A stretch of 55,983 bases of DNA, counting the filler, from Dugesia japonica (Eukaryota): the NCBI GenBank assembly GCA_001938525.1. It is 4 parts of 4 records of this genome, joined end to end, with 100 filler letters (N's around TTAATTAATTAA, not from the genome) between each part and the next. Parts side by side here need not be neighbours in the genome. Positions count along the whole stretch, not along the records: positions 1 to 11,550 come from MQRL01619396.1; 3 more parts are not named here. One strand, written 5' to 3'. The notes below the pieces were generated by a model, which saw only the letters and a program-made list of their open reading frames with translations, was not told where the DNA came from and did not search any database. The translations under genes and the position numbers were made by a program. Below are positions 5,105 through 50,455 of this stretch, one piece after another. Each line of letters opens with the position of its first letter. The first letter of the stretch is position 1.

Positions 5105-5767
5105 ATTTTGAAATGACATCTATGACATTTTTTAGGCATTTTTATGTAAATTTAATTTCGCTTATGTAATTTTAGTGTATTTTATTGACTTCTAGTCATT
5201 TTTGGTCGTATTTTAATGACATCTATGCATTAAAATTGAAATATTTATGTAATAAAACATATTCAATTTTTGAAATGATTTGTTTAATTTGCAGTTGCTT
5301 TGCATTTGTATTGCATTTAAATTGTTTTAACGAAGAAATTTCAATCAAAAGATGATAATAATCTAAGTACCACAATTTCAACCAATAAAAGCCATACTTA
5401 CAAACTATACATTAAATAATTATCAACACTGAGTATAAAAGCAAAAAACATTTAATAAATTTTCATTATTTAAAAATGAAGCAAATTATTGGGTTAGCAA
5501 AAGATAATGTTATGACCATCGCTGTGAATTACGGAAAGCCTACAGAATTTCATGGAATCTAAATGAAAACAAAGTTGGAAAACCAAAAAAAAATCAAAAA
5601 CTAGAAAGTCAAAAATCAGTTCAAAAATCTTTTTTAAAAAACAAGTTAGACTGAATAAGTTCAAGAAGATAGCAAAACTCTATAGAAAAAAGCTTAGAAA
5701 CGTAAATGAATATCAATATAAACAATCTGTTTATATGTAGATAAAATATAATATTTAGATAAGAAAA

Positions 5768-5965
5768 ATGAAATCACATCAAAGTATTCCATTTTTTTTA
5801 CCTTTAATCAAATCACCAAGTATAATTAGAGTGAGAATCCTGCAGGCATTTCCAGCCTGTGTTGTTGATGATTTAGTAGAAATCATTAGAGATATTTTTA
5901 GCGGTTAGTTATATGAAAAGCCTGCTTGGATATTACCATCGCAAATAGTTAATAATGAAAAATAA
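5768..5965 (+). pseudogene. Polinton remnant: PW/core-protein-like N-part fused by deletion to a probable integrase chromodomain tail
   Basis: Translates ...IRVRILQAFPACVVDDLVEIIRDIFSG*LYEKPAWILPSQIV; the first half resembles the small Polinton protein with CLCECALNILKG, the second resembles the KGY...SWIP chromodomain end; lies directly before the penton. Confidence 0.35.
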
Positions 5966-6320
5966 TTTCTATACACTTTTGCCGAGTTATAGTAGTCATC
6001 TTGTTTATCAGGATACTAATGGTAGTAATTTCATTGTTGAAATTCAAATTGCAATTAATTAGGAAGGTAGTTGGCAAGTAGCCATGACGGATTTCACTTA
6101 TGTATCAATCATTTCCTATATATAGTAAATCTAGAATTGATTATGAAATATTTCAACAAGTTAGTAGTGACTTGTTTTTACTTATTGATAACAAACAAAA
6201 AATAACTCGTTTAACTATTTCTTATAAAGGTTTTGATAAAGATTATAAACCTAATGCAGCTCTCAATGATAATACGCTAATATTTAATAATACTAGTGCT
6301 GTTAGTTCAGAAAGTGCTTT
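5955..6320 (+). pseudogene. Polinton/adintovirus minor capsid protein (penton, PX), N-terminal remnant
   Basis: MKNNFYTLLPSYSSHLVYQDTNGSNFIVEIQIAIN*EGSWQVAMTDFTY matches the penton N-terminal pattern FYxxLPSNSS...N..SNFxV.L...I.L.G.WEV.L.EI.Y; internal stop and frameshift. Confidence 0.85.
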
Positions 6321-6324
6321 GATG

Positions 6325-6734
6325 TTTAATACTCTTAAGGGTGATTATAAATATTCTATTTCAACATTTCAAGATTTAAATGTTACTTTCTTGTCTTTAG
6401 CAAAAAATATTGGTTATCGAGAGACAGATACTCAGGATTTTGAAAACGAACAATTATAGCACTACATATATCCAATCTATTGTTCAAAATATGGTATATT
6501 TGGATATGAATATGAATTATGAATTAACTCTTGATGAATTCAAAACCAAATATCCATTTTTACAATCGTGCTTGATCCGGATTTCGATATAAATCAAAGT
6601 CAATTACCACAACAAGGAAATTTGAGATTAAATATAAAGTTTGCAAAAGCTTTGACTGTACCAGCGTATGTTATTATTTATGGAGTATTGGAAAAGGAAA
6701 TTCAAATCAATGCTATAGAACAGTATTAGTGTAA
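6325..6734 (+). pseudogene. Polinton/adintovirus major capsid protein (PY/hexon-like), C-terminal remnant
   Basis: FNTLKGDYKYSISTFQDLNVTFLSL...QDFEN/NYSTTYIQS...ELTLDEFKTKYPF/FTIVLDPD...QGNLRLNIKFAKALTVPAYVIIYGVLEKEIQI parallels the MCP pattern FAFDLTPD...GNxRLE..F..AL....CIVYAEF...I.I; two or more frameshifts. Confidence 0.85.
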
Positions 6735-6737
6735 ACA

Positions 6738-7135
6738 ATATCGTGTAAAATCGATAAATGTTATGAAGTAAGTTTAATTATATTTATGATTTTTATTTAA
6801 TTAGTTCTATTCAGATTGCAACAAAGTGGATTGGATCAGCATGGTTAGGTGTCTATCCATTAGACAGGATTCCATATATACCATTGAATAAAGCATTAAT
6901 CGTCAATACCCATACATCAAACCTAGGTGGAGAACATTAATTAGCTATTAACAATAAACCATCAAAGATATTGGTATTCGATTAGTTTAAGTATTATTAT
7001 CCATCAATGTTGGTATCACATCTATTGAAAATGTCAAAAACAATTAAGTAAAATAAGATATGCTATCAACCATGGTTTACTATAACCTGTGGACAATATT
7101 TCTTATTGGGGTTGAGATATCAACATTATAGTTGA
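6738..7135 (+). pseudogene. Adenain-like (adenovirus-type) cysteine protease of Polinton, with predicted intron 6768-6814
   Basis: WLGVYPLDRIP...ALIVNTHTSNLGGEH*LAI...VFD*F...NKICYQPWFTITCGQY retains catalytic H, D and Q..CG motifs; three in-frame stops; GTAAGT...TTCAG intron joins SCKIDKCYE in frame. Confidence 0.88.
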
Positions 7136-8559
7136 AAATGTACATTGATGTATTGATGTTTTTTGAAAATAAATGTAATTAAAAAAAATTTGTCTTGTTT
7201 TCATTTGTTAATAACTAATAATATATAGTCTTACAGTATTACATATAACAAGATTTGACTTAATTTTTGGACTTAATTTAAAATTAACTAATGATATACA
7301 CACGTAGTTAGATAACACAGAAAGAACAAAAAAGATAAGAGAGTATATAACACATTACATATTTCATTTTCATCAGTTGTTAATTAAAAAGCAAAATGTA
7401 GAGGAGCTTCGCAAAACATGCATTGAATCAGCATAATCAGATGGCCAGCAGGATCTAATTAATGATAAGGTATTTCTTTTTTTAATAATTAATATTTTTT
7501 TAATTTTTACTTTCAGATATTATTTCGATAATTCTTTTAAGAAAAAGATGGGTTCCTTAAAAAGAAGAATATCAAACAGTTTTAGAAGGATATTACAAGG
7601 ACATATATTTGTGCGCTCTTTGCAAATGCTACAAGTGTATATATATATATGCTTCTTGAGAATCTTGTAAATTTGTGTTAATACATTTTTTGTTAATAAA
7701 ATATTTTTCTTTTTTATTTTCATATAGTTATTTATAATAAAGTTTTTAGTTAATTTGGTGGTTATTTTTTTTAAAGTAATTTATTTGAAATACAGTTTTT
7801 ATTATTTAGTTAGTTAATTTGATAGGTATATCTTTATAAATATTGTGATTTATATATAGTTAATTAAAAAAAAGTCAAATAAATAAATACCATTTATTAT
7901 AATAACGTTTTTATTAATTGAGTTAATGTTGTCTCCATTTTTCTTGACTCCTTGTATTTCCACCTGTATCATATATTGTTGGGAATTTTCGAATAAAATC
8001 GATTTGATGAAAACTGTATCCTTAATTGTAATCGTTGGTTAAATTCTTTGTAATAATAAATTCAAAGTATTCATGTCTTTGGAACCGATATTGGATATCA
8101 ACACACTATACGTAGAATTTTGTATCTTTACAGGTTCCTATATAAAAATTTTAAAAGTCCTTTGTTCTTTCTTATTTGATTTTTTCGTAAAGTATGCATT
8201 TTATCATACTTATCTTTAAGACAATGTATAGGTAGACTTTAATCTCTATTTGATAGTATCAAATTTGAGTCTGTGCACGCTTTTTAAACATTAAAATTTT
8301 AAACATTTAATAACTCGACACCAATACATCAGATTAAAATTCCGAGATAGCAGTTATGTTCAACAGTACCAAGGTTGTCATCATAGCGTGTATGTACTTG
8401 ATTTAATCTTGATTTTAAAAGTGGTGATTTTAGGTGGTTTACTGCTGACATAACTACTCTATTGTTCTTCACTTTTCGATATGAAGAAAGCATTTTTGTC
8501 TTTAAGTCTTTCAGGTAATGTATAGTTGATTTTCGATTTTATGATGTTTTTTTGAAAAA

Positions 8560-8847
8560 AAAGTATGACTCATCAAAAAATTCAAAATGTCTGGAGCGTA
8601 AGGGTTAGGGGGTTTGGGTAGTGGGTAGGAGGTTTTTGTTCAAAAAAAAGTATAACTCATCAAATAATAAAGTTTTAAAAAATTTAAAACAAAATTAAAA
8701 AATAATTTAAAAAAAATTTTTTTTTAGAAAAGATGTAGCCAAAAAAAATTGTGTGTGGCCCAAAAAATTGAGCATGGCCAAACAAAAGTGGGCGTGGCCA
8801 AAATGGGTGCTGCTGTGACTCATTGGGGGATGATATTTCTACCTACT
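8560..8847. mobile_element. Putative Polinton terminus inserted next to/into a PolB gene
   Basis: ~20-bp repeats ending tggcc, GGGCGTGG box, two TGACTCA, G tract, ends CTACCTACT; PolB coding sequence starts immediately after. Confidence 0.55.
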
Positions 8848-9700
8848 CTACAGGACTTGGGAATGCATCGGTTATTTTTATCATGAATTAGAGGTGGCAT
8901 GACATTTGTAAATACACATTACGTTCGGGCAGACAAGAATACCTCACTGCAATATATCGATATAAATAATCTATTCGGTTTGGCCTTAAAACAGTCTTTA
9001 ACATATAGAGACTTTGAGTTTTTACCGGAAGATCAGTTGGAAGAAGTATATCAGAAGTTATTATTATCAAGCAGTGAAGAAGGATTGTATATGTCTGGAT
9101 AGACCAAGTTACATTAGACAGACGGGGCTGGATCTTACCAAGCTACGCATGTACAAGTTACAGTATGAAGAGTTGGAAAATATCGAAATCAATTTGGTTG
9201 TGAAATCCTTATTACCGGTGAGATAGATAGCACTTTCTTGTCATGCACTGGAGTGGACAAAAACGGACTCTTAAGAGAATTTAAATTTGTGGTCTGCTGA
9301 ATATAATAAATTATTCAAAGGAACACTCATTATACTCTAGTAATGTAACCAACAAGATCTGGTCATTTAAAAATGAGGGTCAAGGAGAGGATTATCTGGA
9401 ATGGGTATTTTTGAGACCTAAATGCTATAGCATGAATAAGGAAGATGGCAGCACAACTATGAAGGCTATAAGAGTTGGTTTGAAAAAAACTTATATTCGC
9501 CATGATAACTATTTGGACTTCTATACCGAAGCAGAAGAAGTAAAGAAGGTAAATCAGAGCACATTCAGGTCACTTAATCATCAGACTTATACAATAGAAA
9601 CTAAGAAATACGCGTTATAATATGTGGACGATAAGCTCTTTTGGAAGGAAAAAAATAAGAGTATGGCCGATGGCCATGATCAAATAAATAACTCAATTTT
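8848..9700 (+). pseudogene. polB: Protein-primed family B DNA polymerase (Polinton/adintovirus pPolB), internally deleted C-terminal remnant
   Basis: IRGGMTFVNTHYVRA...LQYIDINNLFGLALKQSL (YxDxNNLYG motif), LDLTKLRMYKLQY, a degenerate DTDS, FKNE...LRPKCYS, FRSLNHQTYTIETKKYAL*YVDDK...ADGH. Confidence 0.92.
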
Positions 9701-10359: not shown

Positions 10360-11420
10360 ATAAATCAATAACTTCCATGTAATCTGTTCCTTGAATAATA
10401 TTAGAATGTCATGTCAGTAGAATTCATATTGCACGATTTTTACACGTGTATTGTGCACATAATATATATTTATTGCAACATGTTGCGCATTAATACATCA
10501 TGTAAATTTCAAAAAAAATGTTTTGATACTTCTTTGCAATTTCATAAATTAATTTCTGACTTCTATCCAATTTAATAAAATATGTAGTGACTTCTAGTCA
10601 TTTTTAGATTTACTTTCTAAAATATGATTTTGAAGGAATTATAGACTTCTATGAAATTTATGATTATCTTTTCAACTACTATATAATTTCAGATAAAATT
10701 ATTTGACTTCAAGTAAATTAGATAATACTACTTTGCACTTTCTGGACCTCATTTACATTAGCTTCCTCATACTCTTGTTCTTACTTATCATTGTTTTAAG
10801 TAAAGACACATACTAAGAATGAAGTGAAACCTTATTTGGATAAGAAATAATTGAATATGTATAACTTGTTTGTTAATAGTTTGTTCTAAATAATAAATTA
10901 TAATGTAGTGGGGCTTCTTACAAAAATTAGTCTATTGAATGTTTCTTGTTTAATAGCCTTCTATTTAATTATAAAAAACCTATATGTGTCATATTAAAAT
11001 TTATATTGTATGGTTTAAACCAATATTTTCATGATAAATCCCATTTTTACATGATAAAATTTTAAATTAAACCAATATTTTCATGAGAATACCCATATTT
11101 GCCATTAAACATATACTTTCCACTTAACCGATATTTTCAATGTTGAATCAAGTATTTATTATGACAAAACCTGTATTTCCTATGTTAAACTCTTATTTTC
11201 CAAGAAAGTTTCTGGTAATTTGACATTTAAAAGAAAATGAAATACATAAAACCAAAGTTAACAAATTAAAGCAAATAGCAAGCAAAGAACCAGAAGGATA
11301 ATCAAATGATGAAAACATACTGAAATAGTTAAATTATTTTAAATAAGAGATATGAGATATCAAGTGTTACTCACTATCACTCAGTCGTATAGTTTTCTTN
11401 TATCTCTTACTGTTACTTTT
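10360..11420 (+). repeat. ~1.1-kb interspersed repeat, inverted homolog of 44640-45820
   Basis: Colinear shared blocks ttccttga(a/g)taatat.agaatgt, attcatattgcac, catgtaaatttc, aaaaccaaagt, atactgaaata, ttactc(a/g)ctatcactcagtc. Confidence 0.8.
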
Positions 11421-11550
11421 TAAAGATTAAGATTCAATAGAACGTAGAGTAAAATATAGATAAATAGAGTAAATGATGCTTGTATGTATGCTTTATTGAA
11501 ATAAAAATGAAATTAGAAAGAAGTATTCAGTTTTTTATCGCCTTGATTAA

Positions 11551-12300: not shown

Positions 12301-13203
12301 TCAGTTATATTTTACGTAACTGTTAAAGTCATTATTAACTTGGCAATAATTGTAAGCTTCATATGAGAGAACTATTGAAACAATAATCAGTAATAATAAA
12401 GCTGACAAAAGTTTCAACCAATCCATCAAACTTTTTATCGTGTTTTTTATATTAATTGTATTGTTGAATTTTATTTCTGGTTCCGTAACGTTAAATTGCA
12501 ATTGTTGCTCTATAACGACATCATTGGCTGGATCAATAATCGATTTACAAGTAATCGTTTTGAAATTACCAGATTTGTCAGCAAATAATACCAATCTTAT
12601 AACAACATCCAAATTTTTCAAATTTAAAATTTTNAAATCCTGATTTTCTAAAAGGATTTTAGCAGAATAATCTTTCCATTCACAGTCTACTGAAAATGTT
12701 GTATTAATGAGTATTGGATTGGATGCATTCGTTTTCATTACTAATTGATATTGATGCGGATAAATATTCATTTGAACAGCATAAATTGGTGTTATCTTAG
12801 GAAAATCGATATCTCGTCTTTGAATTGAAACTTCCAAATTTAGAGTATGATCAACCGATTGGAATTCAATTTCAAAGTAAATGACTTTATTCCAGTAAAA
12901 ATTTCGTTTCGGTTTAAAATGTAGATATTCTGCGAGATTGTGAGACATTTCAGCTAGGGGTTCATAACGAAAAACATACTCGTTATCATAATTCAAATAA
13001 AATGCTTCTCCAGGATAAAGTTTGCGATTTTCCAATAAACCTATTGTTAAATTAACTAAAGTATTTGATTTAACTGGAAAAGGGGGTTGTAAATCTACAT
13101 CATAAATCTTGTCGTAGTCGATTTGTTGTCCATGTTCATTAGAAATATTCCCAAACAAATTGTAGAGAATTATTAAAAAATAACTTGAAATAAATTTATT
13201 CAT
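12301..13203 (-). CDS. Single-exon type I membrane protein (300 aa), possible Ig-like domain
   Basis: Long intact ORF in AT-rich DNA; N-terminal hydrophobic signal; Cys pair VDCEW...LVLFADKSGNFKTITCK; TM LLSALLLLIIVSIVLSY; short tail. Confidence 0.85.
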   Translation of the reverse strand: MNKFISSYFLIILYNLFGNISNEHGQQIDYDKIYDVDLQPPFPVKSNTLVNLTIGLLENRKLYPGEAFYLNYDNEYVFRYEPLAEMSHNLAEYLHFKPKRNFYWNKVIYFEIEFQSVDHTLNLEVSIQRRDIDFPKITPIYAVQMNIYPHQYQLVMKTNASNPILINTTFSVDCEWKDYSAKILLENQDXKILNLKNLDVVIRLVLFADKSGNFKTITCKSIIDPANDVVIEQQLQFNVTEPEIKFNNTINIKNTIKSLMDWLKLLSALLLLIIVSIVLSYEAYNYCQVNNDFNSYVKYN

Positions 13204-13570
13204 GTAGTTATTCAGAATAGAAATTTAATTTCAGTATTGAATGTATCTATTGGTAAACTATTGATTATTTGAATATTATTATTTAAATTAATTATTGATT
13301 AAGTATAATAATGATAGAATTCTGTACTACGGAACTTCGAATCTTAAATGTTTTAGAAATGGAATATAAAATAATATAGAATTTACTTTTAAGATTCAAA
13401 CTCGAATTGAATTGACAGGTTCTGAATTTTTGTCGACAAACATGGATAAGTTTATATATATTGTTAAATTAACTAAAATATTTGATTTAACTGGAAAATA
13501 TATATATAAAAATCGAAGAAAAATTACAATTTTATAATAAAAACTCTGAAAACTCCATTTAAATATATTT

Positions 13571-14290
13571 TTGTATCACATGTTTCGGCAGAAAATCTGT
13601 CATATTCGGATACAATAATTTAATTCTTTTTTGAAAATTCTTTATGGATAAAGTATTATTCCTTTTTTAATTTTTTTNNNNNNNNNNNNNNNNNNNNNNN
13701 AGTTCTGATTATGTTAGCAATGATGCAATATCTCCAATAAATCAATTTAATTAAAAAAATTCAATAAAGATTTAGAACATTAACTTTTGGATCAATTGAT
13801 CTAATTATCAATGCTTCAAACATGACTCTCTTCCAATTATCTTTAAAGTTTATGCACAAAATTTTAAAATTATTTAAACTGATAACTTATTTATAATTAA
13901 TATTATATTCAGCAATATTACTTTGAATACAAATTCGACGATGTTCTTGAATTCTTGTACAGAGATGACGTGAAGTTTCTCNAATGTATGTGGCATTACA
14001 TCCATGACATTCATAATTATAAACAAGATCGAAACAGAATTGAATTGGTGTTTTTATTAAACATACTTATGATTTTATAAGATTGCGAAACAGTTTTAAA
14101 ATTCAAAGAGTCATTTCTATATTTTAGTAACCCACTCTTGAATTGCTTAAATCCTTCTGAATACGGAATAGTTAATACTATTTGTTAATGTTCAAATTTT
14201 AGCTTCTTAATTAAATAAAAATGGTTATTATAAATCAATTGTGGAGAAATTAAATCGTGAAACATTTGATAAGATCGTTTATACAAATAA
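13571..14290 (-). mobile_element. Penelope-like retroelement remnant (GIY-YIG endonuclease plus decayed 3' hammerhead)
   Basis: DLVYNYECHGCNATYIXETSRHLCTRIQEH; homologous to 22700-23760; decayed HHR at 13571-13616. Confidence 0.85.
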
Positions 14291-18959: not shown

Positions 18960-19400
18960 ACATCAATTTCACGTAACTATTAGTTCTACTATTTAATCTT
19001 TTGATCTTCCACATGACACCAGTTGATTTATGAACTTCGTGTATCTTTTACTTTTACTGGTAACATCCATTCAGATTTATTTTTTATAAATTTATCATTT
19101 ATTATTCTCGTCCTCATCATTAAGATTGATGAAAATTGAATCCTTTATTTTTATATCTTTGCTTAACCTTGCAAATAATGCTTCTAATATGTTTTTATCG
19201 TTCGTGTTAATATCGGAAAGAAGCAAACTCTATTTTTATTTTGTACTCAAAACTGGTTTCTGAAAAATTAATAATTTATAATAAAAACAATAAATAAAAT
19301 TACCTTGAAGTCATAAATAATAGGATTCCTGATGAAATATATCTTGTGATAATGGAAATCTGTAATTTTTCCAGATTCCATGGTAATTGATGAAACATTG
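18960..19400 (-). pseudogene. Decayed unknown gene with a predicted 44-nt intron (19260-19303)
   Basis: Minus strand AAG|gtaatt...tttttcag; coding-like LLLSDINTNDKNILEALFARLSKDIKIKDSIFINLNDEDEN with stops; upstream CCAAT/TATA-like layout. Confidence 0.35.
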
Positions 19401-22699: not shown

Positions 22700-23760
22700 T
22701 CTATAACATGTTTCGAGAGAACATTTCTCATCTTTACATACACTATTTAATTCATTTGAAAGTTCTTATTTATAAAATGTTGTTGTTGTGTAATCAATTA
22801 TGTAATCTCTCCAGCAAATCAAATGAAATAAAAACATCCAATAAATACATGCTTAACACATGACTCGCTATCAATAATCTTTAAGGTTTCTGCACAAAAT
22901 TTTTAAATTATTTATACTGATAACTGATTTACAGTTAATACTATGTTCAGTAATATTACTTTCACTGCAAACTTGTAAATGTTCTCAGATTCTTGCACAG
23001 AAATGACGGGAAGTCTCTCCAATGTATGTGGCATTACACCCATTACATTCATATTTATAAACAAGATCAGAACACAATTAAATTGGTGTTTTACATTTGT
23101 TGCTAAACATATTTATGATTTTATAAGACTTTGAAACAACTTAAAAATTCAAAGAGTAAATTCTATATTTTAACAACAATTCACTCTTAAATTGTTTAAA
23201 TCTTTCAGAATACGGAATAGTTAATACGTAACTAATGTTATCTATCTTATTTGGGTCTTTGATAATACTTTCACAATTTAAATTATCATTATTATTGACA
23301 TCTTTAATTTGATTTTTATAAACAATCTTATCAATTGTTTCGTGAGTTAATTTCTCCACAATTGATTTACAATTACCATGTTTATTTAGTAAAGAAGTTA
23401 AACTTTGAACATTAGCACAAGACTTCAAATATGAAGAGTAAAGAGTCCATGATCTAGACAACAATCCTTTAATAATGTTCTACTTGTAGCGAGTATTCAT
23501 AAAGAAATTCGATATGAAAAATGTCTACTAGTTCTCAATTTTAGAATAATCATTATTTTTAAACTGTTCTGGTTTTATGCAACAAAAATTAAGATCTTTG
23601 AAATAAATTATTAACTCATTTCAGTCTAATTAGTCTACTTGAACCCATAGAACTTTTTTATATTTGAGCTTCGCACTACATTTTCTGTTTAAACAGATCT
23701 TTCACAAGCATATTATCTTGGCAAATACATATTTGCGGTAACCAAACAAAATTTCCCCGA
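22700..23760 (-). mobile_element. Penelope-like retroelement remnant (RT/thumb, GIY-YIG, decayed hammerhead)
   Basis: VLTIPYSERF linker; DLVYKYECNGCNATYIGETSRHFCARI*EH; NITEHSINC...KIL; gagaa-atg-ttctc...GAAACATGTT motif at ~22701-22740. Confidence 0.88.
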
Positions 23761-39388: not shown

Positions 39389-40810
39389 TTAGTCATTCAA
39401 CATTTCATTATAAGTAACTCCATATTGTATCGGAACAGTTGCGTCTTTAACTTTCCAACACGGTGAATTTTGCGTTTGNACAATTTTAATATAAGGTAAA
39501 CCACTAATCGTGTGTCTATCCAAAGGTTCTTCACTGTCGACATCTGGAAATGGTAATTTTTCTTGGGGTAAATTAGTTGCAATTGGTGGTAAATCAGGAA
39601 AGGGTGGCGCAAGATAAACAGGTGTTTTCTTTGGCATAGGACCCAAACCTTGAATTACACGACAGCCTAACGAACTGGTTAATAATGGATTATACTTTTC
39701 AATAATTCTTCTCCGCTTCTCCTTTTCCATTTCCAATAATGCAGTATCACCGTGAAATGTCGGTATTTCTAATTTGGGATAAATAGATAACAGTTTAGAG
39801 AAAAGTTGACTAAAGTTTTTCCTTAATAATAAAGCCGTATGCGATCCAGGAACAGCATAATTTCTCTTGGGAGACGTTAAATTGTTAAGAATCGGATCAC
39901 AAAATCTAATAGTTCTATCTTCAACGTATTCAGTGAAAAATGCAGTCACATCATTCGAAAGTCGTCGTTTTTTCCCGATTATCAATGTGTAAATTCCCAA
40001 GAAAATAAAAACAACCAGAATAAAGGCTAAACAAATAGAGAGTGCAGAATAATTGATAATTGTGATAAATTTATATCCATGGTTAACGTAAAGCGCAACC
40101 GGTTCAGTAATAAAAATATCGCTAAATTTGCATGTTATATTCAACTGATAAACCTGAGGATTTATTTTACCAACAATTTCCAATACATAACTATCATATA
40201 AATATCTCTCCGATAGAATTGTCAAATTAGAGCTAGACGGCAATATTCTCAAATAATCATCGAATAAATATTTCCAGGGAGTTATTAAAGAACATCGAAT
40301 CTTTATTTCATCAAAGGTTTTGTAAAATAATTTATCGAAATTAAGTTCAAGATCACCAAATTGAAAATTAATACCATACGACTGTTCGATTATTTGTTTA
40401 TAATTCTTTTCATAAATCACCATTAAAGGATACCCATGAAGATTAAATGAAACTTTTAGATAATTTACAATAATACATTTTGTTTTAACAATTGTTTGAT
40501 CGTAAACTATATAAATAGACGCAGGAAAATCTTTATGGGCAGATATTATAAGCCTTTCACTTTCTTGCCAATAATGATATTCTGTACAATTGTAAAATCT
40601 TATTGTTATTTTATGAATTGAATATCGAGTATCCAATTGAATTTCAACAGGTCTTAACTCGAATTTTCTTCGATATAATCTAGGAAACTTCGGTTCAAGA
40701 GAACTTACAAACGGAATTTTTATATCTAACTCATCCCCAAGATTAAATGATGATATTACCAATAAATTCCACTTTATGATAAAATAAAAGCCAACAATAT
40801 TTATAAACAT
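39389..40810 (-). CDS. Type I membrane protein (473 aa), possible Ig-like domain, long Pro/Tyr-containing cytoplasmic tail
   Basis: Signal-like N-terminus; IRCSLITPW...VLEIVG...LNITCKF Cys pair; TM SALSICLAFILVVFIFLGIYTLIIG followed by KKRR; tail PVYLAPPFPDLPP. Confidence 0.88.
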   Translation of the reverse strand: MFINIVGFYFIIKWNLLVISSFNLGDELDIKIPFVSSLEPKFPRLYRRKFELRPVEIQLDTRYSIHKITIRFYNCTEYHYWQESERLIISAHKDFPASIYIVYDQTIVKTKCIIVNYLKVSFNLHGYPLMVIYEKNYKQIIEQSYGINFQFGDLELNFDKLFYKTFDEIKIRCSLITPWKYLFDDYLRILPSSSNLTILSERYLYDSYVLEIVGKINPQVYQLNITCKFSDIFITEPVALYVNHGYKFITIINYSALSICLAFILVVFIFLGIYTLIIGKKRRLSNDVTAFFTEYVEDRTIRFCDPILNNLTSPKRNYAVPGSHTALLLRKNFSQLFSKLLSIYPKLEIPTFHGDTALLEMEKEKRRRIIEKYNPLLTSSLGCRVIQGLGPMPKKTPVYLAPPFPDLPPIATNLPQEKLPFPDVDSEEPLDRHTISGLPYIKIXQTQNSPCWKVKDATVPIQYGVTYNEMLND

Positions 40811-41989
40811 TCCATTGAAATATTATTGAATTAATAATTAACATTAATTGATAAATTATGGATTAGTTTTAATAAACTAACATTATAATATTATATTATC
40901 TAATTAAATACTAAGAATGATTAAATTAACAGACTTCATAAAAAACCAATAAACATGAAAACTAAGCTTTAATAAGTTTTATTTAATAATCGAGTGTTTT
41001 ATAGTAAATATTAGCAGCATTTTTAAATATTACTACAGGCCATGAAATTTGTTATGCTAATATTTTTTTCAATTAAAATGTTTTATCATTTTCATATTAA
41101 AACATAAAACTTTCATATTTTTAATAATCAATAAACTTAATAGTAAAATAAAGCTTAATTACTAAACTAATGATAAAAGAATTTTATCGTTAAAACACAA
41201 TTAGACATTTTGATAATTTTAGCAGATAATTTAATTTAATGGAAATCATATATTGATGTTTATAATTCAAAATGATAAAACTTACAAATATTGGTAATTC
41301 TAATTCAAAATTACAACGTTTTACAAAATTTAAAATAGAAAATAAAATATGATTTTATTATTGTACTTAAACAAATGAAAAGTTTTATTTGAATTTTTTG
41401 TGGACAAATTGAATTTTTTTACAATTATATAATAAGTTAACTTTTAAAGTATATAATCATAAACGAATTATATAAAAAATTTTATTGTTCATAGTTTATT
41501 TATAAATAAAATATTGAATAAGACAATATTACATGATTTTCAAAGCACCTGCGTAAAACTATGTTTATTCAAACTCCAAATTCAAAATTCTACTCCCAAA
41601 ATACTTCAAATAAACAAGATTGTTAATTATTCTAAAATCAATTAAATTAAAAAATTTAACTTCGATAGTCTTCTCTCACAATAATGAAATGTTTCTTTAA
41701 TTTTTAATAAGATAACTTTCAAAAATTTGAATTAAAAACAAAAAGAAACAATAAAACATTTAAAGTTTTGCAATATACTTATACACACTCAATAAGTATT
41801 GCATTTGATATCTTTTCACAGTTTTAATCTTTCTGTTCCGGAGTGGGGTACATTGAGACCGGAATAATCTTGTTATTTTTAACCAGTTGCCCAATAATCT
41901 AATAAATGGATGATTCAGGAATGATATAATGGGATTTAAAAATTATAGAACATTGTCAAAGTTAATTTTAGTTCATTAAATAGGAAAAT

Positions 41990-43628: not shown

Positions 43629-44639
43629 TTTATTATTCAAATAAATATAAATATATGTTAATTCGTACAAACAATCAAGTTTAAACAAAACATATATTGT
43701 TTCATTTAAATTAAAATAGAAAGTTATTTAGTTAAAATTAATTAATTAGAAAAAAATATAAATCAAGTTTTTGTATGACTTTAACCATTCTACCTATTCT
43801 TCTCTAATTTGCCCCCCCCAATTTTATTCTTTATTTTACTCTTATTTTAACCCTATTTACACATACGTGACCCCTATTTAATTCTTATTTACACCCTATT
43901 TTGTCTTGTTTTGTCTTATTTTGTCCTGTCTTTTCTATTAACCATACTTTTACCGATTTTGCCCAGTTTTCCCATTGTCTGCTCTATTTCCCCATATTTT
44001 CTAGGATTTTTCTATATTTTCTTTATATTTATTTATTAAGTTTCAAATAATAGAAATAACTCATCGTTTATTTTATTGGATTAAANATTAAGTCCATTAC
44101 AATTTGAGCTCAATATAGGTTCCAACATGAAAATTATAGGTCTGTCTTGTGAAATATTGGTATTCCAATCAATAAAATTCTCCACTATTTGCTTACTTCT
44201 CATCTGAGCCCTGCTTGCACATTGGTTTGTTTGCTTGCTCTTTGGTTTTTATGGGTTTCATTTTCTTTTAAATACCTAAATATCAGTGACATTTTTAGTT
44301 AAATCAAACTTTAGCTTTTAATGTAAACATTATTATATGGTTTCCATATGGAAAATATGAGTTTCATCATAGACAAATTATGGACTTATCATAGAGAATT
44401 TAATTTTACCATTAGAAAATATGAGTTTGGACATAGAATATATTTAATAGAGTAAATCTAGTTACTACTTATACTACATTTATTCTATACATAGTCATTT
44501 ATTATGCTTAATTTGTCTACTTTTTATCATTTTTGACTTATTTTCCTACCATTTACCATACTTTAGTCATTTACCCTATATTTTCCGTATTGGTTTTTAT
44601 GTATATATCCATAGATCTCACTTCAATAATCTTTAAATA

Positions 44640-45820
44640 GTGGCATATATTAATAAAAGAATACAATAAGACTGAGTGATAGCGAGTAAGAGTTGATATG
44701 TTATGCTTTTTATTTAAAATAATATATTTCAGTATATTTTAATGATCTCGTAATCTTTCTCCTTTTTTGTTTGCTATTTGGTTTCCTGCGTGCACTTTGG
44801 TTTTCATTAGTTTATTTTTATTTAAATACCTTATTATCAGTAAAGTTGTTAAAAAATATGAGTTTAACTTAGAAAATACTGATCTTATCATTAGAAATAT
44901 TGATCTCATCATTGAAAATATTAGTTTCAATAGATAAAGTTATAGTTTCATCATTAAAAGCATCGGGTTTATCGGGAAAATACTCGTTTTTTCATAAAAA
45001 TGTGAGTTTTATAATGGAAACTTTGGTTTTATCACGGAAATATTGGTTTTATCATTGTATATAAGACTCTTGAACTAGATATTTTTAATACTTTAAATTA
45101 AGAAATATTGATATTTTCATCACTTAGACAAACACAGGGACAAACAAGTAATAATTATTCAATTATTTCTTATTCAAACTATGTTTCGTTTCATTCTGAA
45201 TAAGTTTCCTTGAGTTAAGTTAGAAAAATGATCAGTAAAGATAAGAGTGAGAAAGATCAAATTTTTTGAATCTCGTGAGATTTAATCTGAAATTTTATAG
45301 TAGTCAATAAACATTATTTGAAATTTCNTAGTANTCGATANAAATTATCTGAAATTTCAAAGTATTCAATAAATATTATATGAAATTGCACAGTAGTCGA
45401 TAAATATTTCAAAATCATATGTATAAGAGCGAGTAAATAATTTAATTATTGCATAAAAGTATCCAAATATTATATGAAATTGCACAGCAGGCACAAATTA
45501 TTTTATAAAATTGCACATTAGTCGATAAAAAGTTTATGAAATTGCGCAGTAGTCGATAAATATTTTCTTAATTGCACAGTAGTCGATAAATATTTTGTGA
45601 AATTGCACAGTAGTGGTAAATTATTTTATGAAATTGTATAGAAATATTAAAACATTCTATGAAATTTACATGAAATATGCAAGATGAATGATAAATATGT
45701 TGCATTACATACAGACTATGTGTCCAGTACAAGTGTGAGAATAGTGCAATATGAATGCTAATCACTCAACATTCTCATATTACTCAAGGAAATGAATAAA
45801 TGAAAATTATTGATTCTAAT
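44640..45820 (-). repeat. Inverted homolog of 10360-11420 with an internal 30-bp minisatellite
   Basis: gaaattgcacagtagtcgataaat units at ~45290-45640; shared flanking blocks. Confidence 0.8.
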
Positions 45821-46125: not shown

Positions 46126-47259
46126 TTAGCTATTGATTATTCATTTAATGGCTTAATCTATTCATCACTTATTCTTATAGTTATGTCTATAATTCACACT
46201 GAATATATACCTTACAGAACACGTTTTATTTCATAATTTTAAAGTTCAGATAAACAATAAGTGATTTCTTTAATTTTTCAATAGATTTTTAATTTAAAAG
46301 TTTAGAAAAATATTATGACCAAATATTATGATGAAGATTGAAAATAATTGAATTATAAAAATTAAATCCGGTTAGTTTTGATAAATTAAAAAAAATTTAA
46401 TTGATTTTGGTATTGTGTTACTTATGATTTTAATTTGAATTAATGGTAAAAAANNNNNNNNNNNNNNNNNNNNNNNNNNNNNNNNNNNNNNNNNNNNNNN
46501 NNNNNNNNNNNNNNNNNNNNNNNNNNNNNNNNNNNNNNNNNNNNNNNNNNNNNNNNNNNNNNNNNNNNNNNNNNNNNNNNNNNNNNNNNNNNNNNNNNNN
46601 NNNNNNNNNNNNNNNNNNNAAAATAAAGACTAAGTTTTAAAATATGCGTAAATCTTTTTTAAGTTACTTAGAATTTTAATAAATTTATAAAAAAGTTGAA
46701 TAACTATACTGTTTCATAACTTTTCTTGTATTATTAAAATTTCACCAACTATTCAACTTGATCATTAAAAAACAAGAATTATGCTCCCGATTTTAAGAAT
46801 TANATGAAAAATGTAATGAAATCAGGTGGGATTTNNTAATTTTATTAAATGTTCACCGTTTATTTTAATTATTAATAAAAATGTATAATTTACACATAAT
46901 TTAACTTGTGAAATTTGAATTTATATGACTTTAATTATGATTTTATTGTTTCCTTTACAATTATTTTGATGACTATTAATTAATGATGAATTAAAATTTT
47001 GATGATTAGTTTAATAAATACAATTAATTTATTACAAATTTAATGTTATCAAATTAAATTTCNNNNNNNNAAATTTTCTCAGTGATCAACTAAAGTACTT
47101 ACTTATTCAATTTATTTAACGAAGAATAAAGATTGATAATTTTGAACTATGTTTTACTTACTCAACATAAAATTCCCTATCTAATAGATACAAAATTGAT
47201 GTACAAAATTGAGTTACCTTTTAGTTTCAAAATTCTATGATCAAATAATATGATTACAA

Positions 47260-50200
47260 TAATATGAGATTACAATTATCCATGATAACAACCCATGTTG
47301 GCATGGAGATCCCTTTTGGTGACATTTTAGATTGTGCCAGTGATCTTGTTCCTGGCATTGACTGTCTTATTGGGAATCCTCAGTTGTCTAAAGCCTGCAT
47401 TCAACAAGATAATGACTACATCTCTGAAACTGTCTGCTTTAAGACTTTTAAAGCTGTTAAAATGATCTTTTGTAACTTCCTTGTCTCGGATGCGAGGTGA
47501 GCCTTGTTTGCTTTTTGTGTGGACTAACGTATTTCGTACTTGTATGACCCGAAAGCAAACCATGGTGGTGCCATAGAAGAGTAATTTCTTTTGAGACTAC
47601 ATGCATGTATTTCTGAGTTCTGTAGAATAAATGACATCACTCTTATCAAACCTCCTTTCACTGTGACAGTTTTTCAAAGGAATGATCAAAAGAGAAGTTT
47701 AATTGTCTGTGGGTTTATGAGCTCAATCTCAAAATTCAATAAATTGAGTAGAGTTAAATCAAATCAATTAAATTAAAATATTTAAACTTTAATAAAATGA
47801 ATAAAAATTTAAATCATAACAAAAGGAGTGACAAAAATCAAATAGTTAATAAAATTGTTTAAAATACAAATAAAATTAACGAATTGCTGAAAACTATCGA
47901 CAGAAGTGATGTAAACTTAGCTGTAGACTCTTTCTACAGCTATATCTACTATGTTCGATGCGTCAAACCGAAATCCTTAAATTTTAAAATTTGTGACGGT
48001 AAAACTTACAAGCGTGCAGAAAAATGGAATTAAACTTGAAAGATCAATTTTATCACTCTCAAAAAGCGGTTTTTGAGTTGATTACCAATGAGATATCGAC
48101 TGACTCCTTTCCTTTTCAAGTTGACCTCGAAGCATTTTTCCTGTCTAAAGCTGAAGTTNCTCCTAATACTAACTGGGACCTATGCCCCTCTTTAAAATCT
48201 GGGGAAGATAATTTTGAATTTTCTTGTCCGGAACCTTGACGAACAAAATCGATATGCCAAGTTCAACTTGCATATCGCATTCTTAGACATAGCTGATGCC
48301 TTTAGTAGTTTACCAATTGAGCATATTCTTGGTCTTCTTTCGATAATAGAGGTTACCAAAACGGCTACTAGATTAATCAGACCTCTTTATTCTGACTGCT
48401 CCAGCTATTACATCTGCAATAAGGTTTCTACTAACCATATTGCTAACAAAAGAGGGGCTAGACAAGGCTGTCCTCTTTCAATGTTTTTGTTTAACATCGG
48501 CATCAACCATAATCTTAATGAGATTTCGAAAACTGAAGGTGTCAGTATTAAATGTGTTTGACATCCCATATCTTGTTTGGTATAGGCAGATGATCTAGCA
48601 CTTGTAGCCTCTTCCAAGGCTAGCCTTCAGGATATGGTTGATGTCGCTGTCAAATTTGCCGATTAATCACATCTTGATTTTCGGCTGAACAAGTGCGCTT
48701 ATTTGCCTTATCCAATAAATGGCGAACTTGCTCAAATTGTCGTTAAGAATGAAGCTATCCCAAAACTGTTGAACAATGACTCTTATCGGTATGTTGGGGT
48801 TGCTTTAATCGAAAACACTTTCAAACACCAACAGAAAAGCTTGCTAAAGATGCTAGGGATCTGGGGAAAATTTCTAACTCACGTACTGTTTCCTTGGCAA
48901 AAAATCCACGCTTATAGAACTTTTATTCATTCCAGGTTCAGGAATGCGTTCAAGAACTTTAACATTCCATTGGGAAAGTTTGATTGCAGTGAATATCTTG
49001 AAAATGGTATTCTTCTACGACCACGAGGTATCGATAAGAGCATTTGCTCTAGCATTTGTCTGTCCCAAACACTGCTACATGTGACTATTTATAAAGTTCT
49101 CATAAACTTGGAGGGGTTGGATTAACTTCTGCGAGAGATGAATATTCCGTACAATCTTTGGTTCAAGCTTTTAAAATGCTAACTTGTTTTGAGAAGACTG
49201 TACGGGATGTTGCCAGCAATGATCTTGTTCATGCTACGNNNNNNNNNNNNNNNNNNNNNNNNNNNNNNNNNNNNNNNNAATCTCTTGATTAGCTCTTCAT
49301 AGATACCACCAATTTGAATTTGATATGTTGGTGGTCTAAGGTCCATGACGCAATTGCTTATCTGTATAGAATGTACTACATTCAAATTAAGTTTAAACGG
49401 AACGAACATAATATTTGTATGCAGATAATCTATTGTTTCGCAGAAGGAAATTATTTTATTTCTTTCAAGGACCGGAGAAGTCTGACTAAATTGCTTCACA
49501 ACCTTTTAAGTTTAGCTCACACGAGGAAATGGAACAGTCAGTTGAAAGCAGGAAGACTGTCAACTTCAATCAGCGCCTCTCTTCTCTCAACAAAGCCCCT
49601 TTTTGATGGAGTTTCATTCATAAGGCAAGAAAAAGCACCCTTCCTGTAGGAAGCAATCATGGTATGCCTATTAAATCCTACAGGAAATGTTCTTTTTATC
49701 TTGAAACTGAAGAATATATTCTTTGTCATTGTGGTCCTTCTTCTTCATTTCGAATTTAATTCATTCCGACTTAATGAAGTGCTTGAGTTGCTATCCAGCT
49801 TTGTCAGATCAAAGACAAGCTATACAGTCGTTGCAGATCAGACTTGTGAATTTGTCAAGAGAACTGATCGTGTTGACCTTCAGCTGATAAACAAGCGTAC
49901 TTTCCTATTGGATGTGAAAATTCTATATGACACATAAGATAACATCAAACTAGCCAAAGATAATAATATCGTTAAATACACACCACTCAAGGAAGACATC
50001 ATGAAAAACTTGAATGGGTGGAAAGTCTCCCTTGAGACAATCTCAGTAGAATGCCTGAGATCTTGGTGTGTAGAAAACGAACTTGTTTTGAAACAAGTAG
50101 GTTTAAAAGCTAGAGTAATTAGAAAATTTGCGTTCATTTCAATTCAGAAATGCATTGCATGGTCAAGCAAAAATTGGTGCTTCCATAGCGGACAAGCTGG

Positions 50201-50455
50201 TGCATTAGACAATTCTGATGAACAATGCAGGATTGTTTATGACAGAGAGTCTGATGTTGTTTTAATCTTTCATTAATTCTGAATATATCTTTCTGTCTAG
50301 GAGATGATAACTGGCAACCACAGAAATTTGTTACTCTCTCCGGTAACACGATCCATCTTTTCCCAGATTCAGCGGGACTATGCTGTATCCCGTCTTGAGT
50401 ATTTAATTTCTGCTTGATTCGGCTCTTAAATTATCGATAGTATCAGTTGTTTTAA
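47260..50455 (+). mobile_element. Non-LTR retrotransposon with restriction-like endonuclease (NeSL/Utopia-like), decayed
   Basis: RT motifs IAFLDIADAFSSL, RGARQGCPLSMFLFN, *ADDLAL, LDFRLNKC; LFPWQKIHAYRTFIHSRF; RLE region RTD...FLLDVKILYD...KY; C-terminal SW...N..VLK..G...CIAWS..W; N-terminal Ulp1-like traces. Confidence 0.88.

Follow-up and report, generated by a model that had tools for sequence, protein, structure and literature searches.

Four short GT...AG segments in DNA of Dugesia japonica raise the question of whether a Polinton, i.e. a virus-like element, can carry spliceosomal introns in its core genes, and where such introns would begin and end. Intact vertebrate Polintons are described, in the part of PMC8097293 available to us, as having eight 'intronless ORFs' in which 'no introns were observed', and the core genes of the C. 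plicata element are called intronless in the accessible portion of 10.1101/2022.07.12.499685. The window, by which we mean the whole analysed stretch of 55,983 nucleotides, has a GC content of 25%, with microsatellites and many N gaps throughout. A first-pass annotation had proposed introns at 6768-6814 (47 nt), 7470-7516 (47 nt), 19260-19303 on the minus strand (44 nt) and 34096-34149 (54 nt), and all four segments are present with the ends claimed for them. By comparison with relatives, the first lies in a decayed Polinton protease gene whose second codon is split by a 37-nt, clade-conserved GT-AG segment, very probably one that the host spliceosome removes.

Judged by tblastn from intact relatives, which found five gene pieces, the region 5768-9698 is a decayed Polinton (Table 1). 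Of the features by which membership was judged, polymerase, adenain-like protease and double jelly-roll capsid were found in it. The rve integrase (PF00665, E 1e-12) and the packaging ATPase (PF04665, E 2e-6) were both identified in the relative L007, and tblastn gave no match to either in the window, whose Polinton copy is partial. No terminal inverted repeats bracketed the element among the 25 longest of 447 inverted pairs, the relatives themselves being contig fragments, and Pfam gave no match for the window protease, capsid or intron-flanking pieces. The L007 polymerase is of family B; its ORF matches the phrog_1907 DNA polymerase (E 5e-20) and contains polymerase motifs. The L007 homolog of the major capsid remnant scored 0.98 against a double jelly-roll cluster, in a search whose clusters were of mixed taxa. 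The 352-aa ORF may encode a minor capsid protein, judging from gene order. The stretch 9000-9700, at first read as integrase, was reassigned when tblastn from relatives showed polymerase. Exon 2 of the window protease contains three in-frame stops (6938, 6983 and 7049); this copy is a fossil, from which the protease can no longer be produced, spliced or unspliced.

Table 1. Features of the window discussed in the text. L001-L013 are protease loci from metagenome contigs; a slash marks an exon-intron boundary.
Feature	Position	Strand	Evidence
Conserved Polinton ORF of ~110 aa, remnant	5768..5905	+	tblastn with L004/L007 ORFs, 51-59% identity, E 1e-12 and 4e-10
352-aa ORF, 5' remnant, putative minor capsid protein	5940..6101	+	tblastn, 30-44% identity to L003/L004/L007 ORFs
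Major capsid protein gene, 3' remnant with stops	6340..6711	+	tblastn, 36-41% identity, E 1e-16 to 2e-21
First coding exon of the protease gene, ATG and two further bases	6763..6767	+	ATGAA immediately 5' of the donor in 8/8 intron-bearing loci
Predicted phase-2 intron, 37 nt, GTAAGT...TTAATTAG, 6% GC	6768..6804	+	Position common to L001-L007; not in L008-L012
Protease exon 2, adenain-like, broken	6805..7135	+	PF00770 homologs at 49-65% identity
Intron-like segment, 47 nt, AG/GTATTT...TTTCAG, in a decayed gene	7470..7516	+	Sequence and shuffle test; between protease and polymerase remnants
Protein-primed DNA polymerase gene, 3' remnant, in three frames	8836..9698	+	tblastn, 41-57% identity to the L007 polymerase
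Intron-like segment, 44 nt, AG/GTAATT...TTTTCAG, in a decayed gene	19260..19303	-	Sequence
Candidate intron, 54 nt, between two open frames	34096..34149	+	Sequence only

Relatives of the protease were sought with the exon-2 frame, X being placed at the stops. Six proteins were matched at the identities given in Table 1, four of them with PF00770. Five of the six had N-termini rich in F, I, Y and N and ending near S-x-Q, while the sixth began late, which suggested that gene callers had translated through an intron whose acceptor lies earlier than first annotated. A scan of metagenome contigs added 13 protease loci, of which seven (L001-L007) have the intron and five (L008-L012) lack it; L013 is partial and was not scored. 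A profile built from 15 proteases matches the adenovirus protease structure 1avp (E 1.7e-6). No relatives were found in the viral contigs or prokaryote genomes scanned.

The protease gene starts with the ATG at 6763, and the comparison places the intron in phase 2, inside codon 2. All eight intron-bearing loci, i.e. the window and L001-L007, read ATGAA/GTAA...AG/T; they represent seven distinct introns, those of L003 and L004 being identical. The intron lengths (37, 37, 38, 39, 39, 38, 43 and 37 nt) fall into all three classes modulo three, so the frame is kept only by excision, and GC content is 5-15% in the introns and 31-40% in exon 2. At all eight loci the AG corresponding to 6803-6804 is the first AG at least 25 nt beyond the donor and brings the ATG into the protease frame. 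The following AG is out of frame at every locus; L005 has one later AG in frame, but its use would lose conserved residues. Exon 2 is open for 110-113 codons in all seven relatives. Left unspliced, the exon-2 frame has an upstream stop and no in-frame Met before exon 2 at any of the eight loci, and thus none of the seven intact intron-bearing relatives has the uninterrupted ATG-initiated frame that would speak against an intron. The predicted spliced start, M-N-S-I-Q in the window and usually M-N-S-x-Q, aligns without gaps to the starts of the five intronless relatives (MLTHEI, MDSREV in two of them, MHTSEL and MDSHKV). Two database proteins of the window's own subclade, P0156 and P0266, begin as predicted with MNSVQI and MNSIQI; they may stem from spliced transcripts or from intron loss, the start being the predicted one either way. 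Cluster look-ups for P0156 and P0018 returned no pair of spliced and unspliced forms.

The donor at 6768 thus stands as first annotated, while the acceptor moves from 6814 to the AG at 6803-6804, which is conserved in 8/8 loci. In the original proposal a phase-0 intron of 47 nt separates an upstream exon, SCKIDKCYE, from IATKW; in the window this intron does have a good TTCAG end, and the join is in frame. The model is nevertheless extremely improbable, since its acceptor is out of frame with the conserved ATG and its supposed exon is non-coding spacer, the frame of which (V, stop, TISCKIDKCYE) lacks an ATG and is unconserved in all seven relatives. The codon at that acceptor is CAG in only three of the eight loci, GCA in two and GAA in three, so that L003-L007 already contradict the model; the CAG itself encodes Gln, residue five of the predicted start M-N-S-I-Q. 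Furthermore, genomic copies in DNA run X1 have 1- and 2-base insertions just 5' of the ATG, which would shift the frame of the supposed exon, as well as a 2-base deletion within the intron.

What survives of the claim is its core, that a Polinton core gene has a short intron of spliceosomal type, with position and splice dinucleotides conserved, and length and interior varying, among seven intact relatives. The protease introns of L001 and L002 are 79% identical, their second exons 94%. Over 21 pairs, intron interiors have an identity of 0.62, against 0.58 when shuffled; the ungapped exon identity of 0.55 makes an unfair contrast to the 0.62. Acceptors are weak in places (TAAG in L003 and L004), and the AT-rich interiors contain no YTRAY branch point at a consistent distance. 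GT...AG ends together with a donor-consensus match were found at all eight protease loci, in nine further introns, and in four more in L001. As a separate observation from protein data alone, P0007 and P0161 have called N-termini with ...WSK... 5' of exon 2, which would fit an ATG-GA/GTAAG start giving Met-Asp; such a start resembles those of intronless relatives.

Introns were also found in the polymerase genes of relatives, where they sit in the 5' part (L002:1590-4472, L001:1477-2045 and L007:9122-12938 on the minus strand). The L002 gene, with its ATG at 1590, contains five GT-AG segments of 42-46 nt and 0-10% GC; their excision leaves 888 codons with no stop, continuing into the polymerase frame, and this frame and the L007 polymerase share 44% identity over 533 residues. 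In L007 three introns (45, 53 and 49 nt) are predicted, and 1223 codons without a stop remain after excision. The first four L002 introns recur in L001 at identical positions, where they measure 42, 41, 42 and 41 nt as against 44, 42, 42 and 46 nt in L002; exon lengths differ only by 6 nt between the two genes, three of the four intron lengths by 1, 2 and 5 nt. Identity between the two is 0.80 for intron 1, 0.76 for intron 2 and 0.76 for the intervening exon, the introns not falling below the exon because both consist almost wholly of A and T. The first polymerase exons encode a Cys/His-rich stretch, and the polymerase carries an endonuclease VII domain. An accessory gene of no known family (L007:1502-2138, plus strand) has one 43-nt phase-0 intron, without which it reads as 198 codons with no stop. 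Single open frames were found for the ATPase, the integrase and both capsid proteins in L004 and L007, and for the capsid protein in L005; all have a Met within 15 codons, a small first exon being still possible there. A TATA-binding-protein-like ORF (PF00352) occurs in both an intron-bearing and an intronless relative, at L007:2160-2621 (plus strand, E 2.7e-17) and L008:1688-2194 (plus strand, E 4.9e-12).

Were the protease segment not spliced, ATG-AAG-TAA would be a conserved two-codon upstream frame, with the protease made by re-initiation or from a downstream non-ATG start. The unspliced message does read Met-Lys-stop at all eight loci, and the RNA data agree with this reading as far as they go. 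Three RNA runs were aligned to 5150-8600, and DNA runs of the same organism contain part of the window. With about 6%, 25% and 25% of the respective runs covered, 122, 476 and 229 RNA reads aligned, mostly less than 90% alike to the window and on both strands. In RNA run X11 depth is ~13-17 at 6750-6788, over the donor and the intron interior, so unspliced or DNA-derived molecules are present. The check first suggested for the intron came out in two halves. GT and AG are conserved; no junction was listed in any of the three RNA runs, a result that does not favour splicing and, with low depth, divergent copies and a short upstream anchor, makes a weak test. We consider the upstream frame quite improbable all the same, as it leaves unexplained the homologous AG in 8/8 loci, the gap-free match to intronless relatives and the twelve frame-keeping segments in three polymerase genes, and would have to do without any in-frame Met 5' of exon 2 at the eight loci.

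Another reading, that the segments are recent insertions into integrated copies, whether introner-like or from AT-rich decay, draws on the heavy decay of the window copy and on the post-integration entry of introners into such elements (PMC12166617, as far as its available text goes). It appears very improbable, given that the same site is occupied in proteases only ~45-55% identical whose frames are intact. Moreover, the five L002 polymerase introns have mutual identities of 0.57-0.74 against shuffle means of 0.60-0.66; being no more alike than their shuffles, they are not young copies of one element. Excision by the host spliceosome therefore remains our preferred reading of the protease segment. 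Well supported by comparison, the intron structure of protease and polymerase appears to be real and previously mis-annotated.

The other proposed introns could be followed less far. Strong splice-type ends and a GC content of 5-7% characterise the segments at 7470 and 19260, which alone in the window match the pattern AG/GTA[AT][GT]...TTCAG with a length of 36-55 nt and less than 12% GC. In 200 local shuffles this pattern, which was drawn after seeing both segments, occurred on average 0.01 times and at most once. Neither gene has a homolog among the 13 loci, and the 19260 gene has none in the protein database; by eye the latter resembled the accessory gene of L007 that bears an intron, a likeness that was not borne out. 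The 7470 segment, lying between the protease and polymerase remnants, probably belongs to the Polinton, and its flanks are present in other genomic copies in run X1. In the window its phase-2 frame has no stop; five differences in other copies at 7602-7624, read by hand in 40 of 828 rows, include two that would leave a phase-1 protein unchanged and one that creates a phase-2 stop. RNA depth at 7470-7585 was rejected as a sign of expression, the reads being poly-T. In run X1, 3955 contigs aligned, so the family has many copies there. Contig depth was also high at 7900-8600, another multi-copy segment, which follows the 7470 gene, precedes the polymerase remnant and has no match among the 13 loci. 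The 19260 segment is ~10 kb from the Polinton remnant. For the candidate at 34096-34149, first annotated as a host intron, the donor is weaker (GTGAAT) and the GC content is 22%; Pfam gave no match for either flank.

The distribution of the protease intron was examined in larger sets. A profile search counted 548 representatives (E up to 1e-10), and 282 proteins came from a search based on words. In a 55-row tree all seven intron rows fall within a 23-row set (support 95/83) that also includes some apparently intronless rows with ordinary starts. A quick tree of 154 rows, leaving out L004, L011, L013, P0041-P0155 and proteins of <90 or >165 residues, narrowed the intron clade to 47 rows (SH-aLRT 83). 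Among the 40 protein-only rows within it, a Met start is canonical in 3 (one being a late start by eye) and lacking in 22, while 11 begin late and 4 are without the anchor motif. Outside it, 90 of 103 rows have the canonical Met, 10 begin with a Met displaced by one or two residues and 3 are partial. A Fisher test on these counts ignores relatedness and was not relied on. On this sequence comparison, the grouping of intron carriers in one clade is moderately supported, the simplest reading being one gain of the intron and a few losses across the clade.

The elements resemble the Polintons/Mavericks (eupolintoviruses) of vertebrates and Caenorhabditis in that the relative L007 combines in one element a protein-primed polymerase, rve integrase, A32-type ATPase, adenain-like protease and jelly-roll capsid, and differ from them in their interrupted protease and polymerase genes. 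Spliceosomal introns on Polintons have a precedent in the intron-bearing cargo genes of nematode Mavericks, wasp proteases and krma kinases, according to the portion of 10.1101/2022.07.12.499685 at hand; there, however, they lie in captured host-type genes, while here the genes concerned are virus core genes and the introns are conserved throughout a clade. Dinoflagellate polinton-like proviruses likewise contain spliceosomal-type introns, but these introners are described in the available text of PMC12166617 as repeated and mobile, mostly post-integration and mostly non-coding, whereas the present introns are non-repetitive and position-conserved, in animal-type elements. In cryptophyte polinton-like viruses, going by the accessible part of PMC12220804, self-splicing group I introns of 309-376 bp recur at a site in a gene adjoining the capsid gene, as the present intron does, although ours are 37-53 nt with GT-AG ends.

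Adenoviruses are a related nuclear DNA virus lineage with the same protease family and use of the host spliceosome. Their late splicing mainly joins leaders to gene bodies, while in the present case the protease gene has a tiny intron of its own, within codon 2.

We found no published description of animal Polintons whose core genes have conserved spliceosomal introns, although supplements or Repbase may annotate exons. This covers the available portions of PMC8502044, PMC6431247, PMC8532177, PMC8363768, PMC11244446, PMC12721341, 10.64898/2026.07.28.741278, 10.1101/809541 and 10.1101/2023.08.22.554363. Surveys choose 'intact' Polintons by uninterrupted ORFs, as stated in the accessible text of PMC8097293 and 10.1101/2023.08.22.554363, and under such a choice the intron clade would score as degraded or be given wrong N-termini. 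The database proteins show mis-annotation of this kind, with the called starts of most clade members inside or after the intron.

Taken together, this Polinton clade likely needs host splicing. Host RNA polymerase II would transcribe the element in the nucleus, and the major spliceosome would remove its introns; the clade ancestor may have gained them in hosts with short AT-rich introns, and they would since have been inherited with the element under selection. The conserved protease and polymerase introns can be seen as sequence evidence of nuclear transcription and splicing under selection. As the unspliced message gives only Met-Lys-stop, protease output would depend on splicing, and the long capsid, integrase and ATPase frames would require none. 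A tentative and on balance doubtful extension is that an animal Polinton clade is spliceosome-dependent with the codon-2 intron acting as a switch for the amount or timing of protease, the capsid genes being intron-free; unspliced read-through RNA from the capsid gene would then yield nothing but the two-codon peptide. If so, intron size would also limit which hosts the element colonises. The introns supply junction markers for real late-gene expression of Polintons, and the clade offers a compact system in which to date how a mobile element gains and loses introns.

Lastly, several other features were noted in the window. The segments 10363-11429 and 44627-45815, 33 kb apart, have ~1.1 kb of inverted similarity at 73-77% and are possibly two copies of another repeat, with the Polinton genes outside. 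An exact 300-nt duplication (11607-11906/12149-12448), beside N gaps and at the 3' end of a 307-aa ORF (12301-13224, minus strand), is probably an assembly artefact. Putative remnants at 13811-14054, 22849-23479 and 35262-35938 resemble, in their motifs, Penelope-type endonuclease and mariner transposase genes. At 39389-40822 on the minus strand lies an uninterrupted 477-aa frame with a likely membrane segment, a 447-aa ORF piece of which has a weak likeness (<0.9) to animal Ig-domain surface proteins and is a lead only. A decayed non-LTR retroelement occupies 47249-50276 on the plus strand, with RVT_1 (E 1e-9) at 48196-48561.
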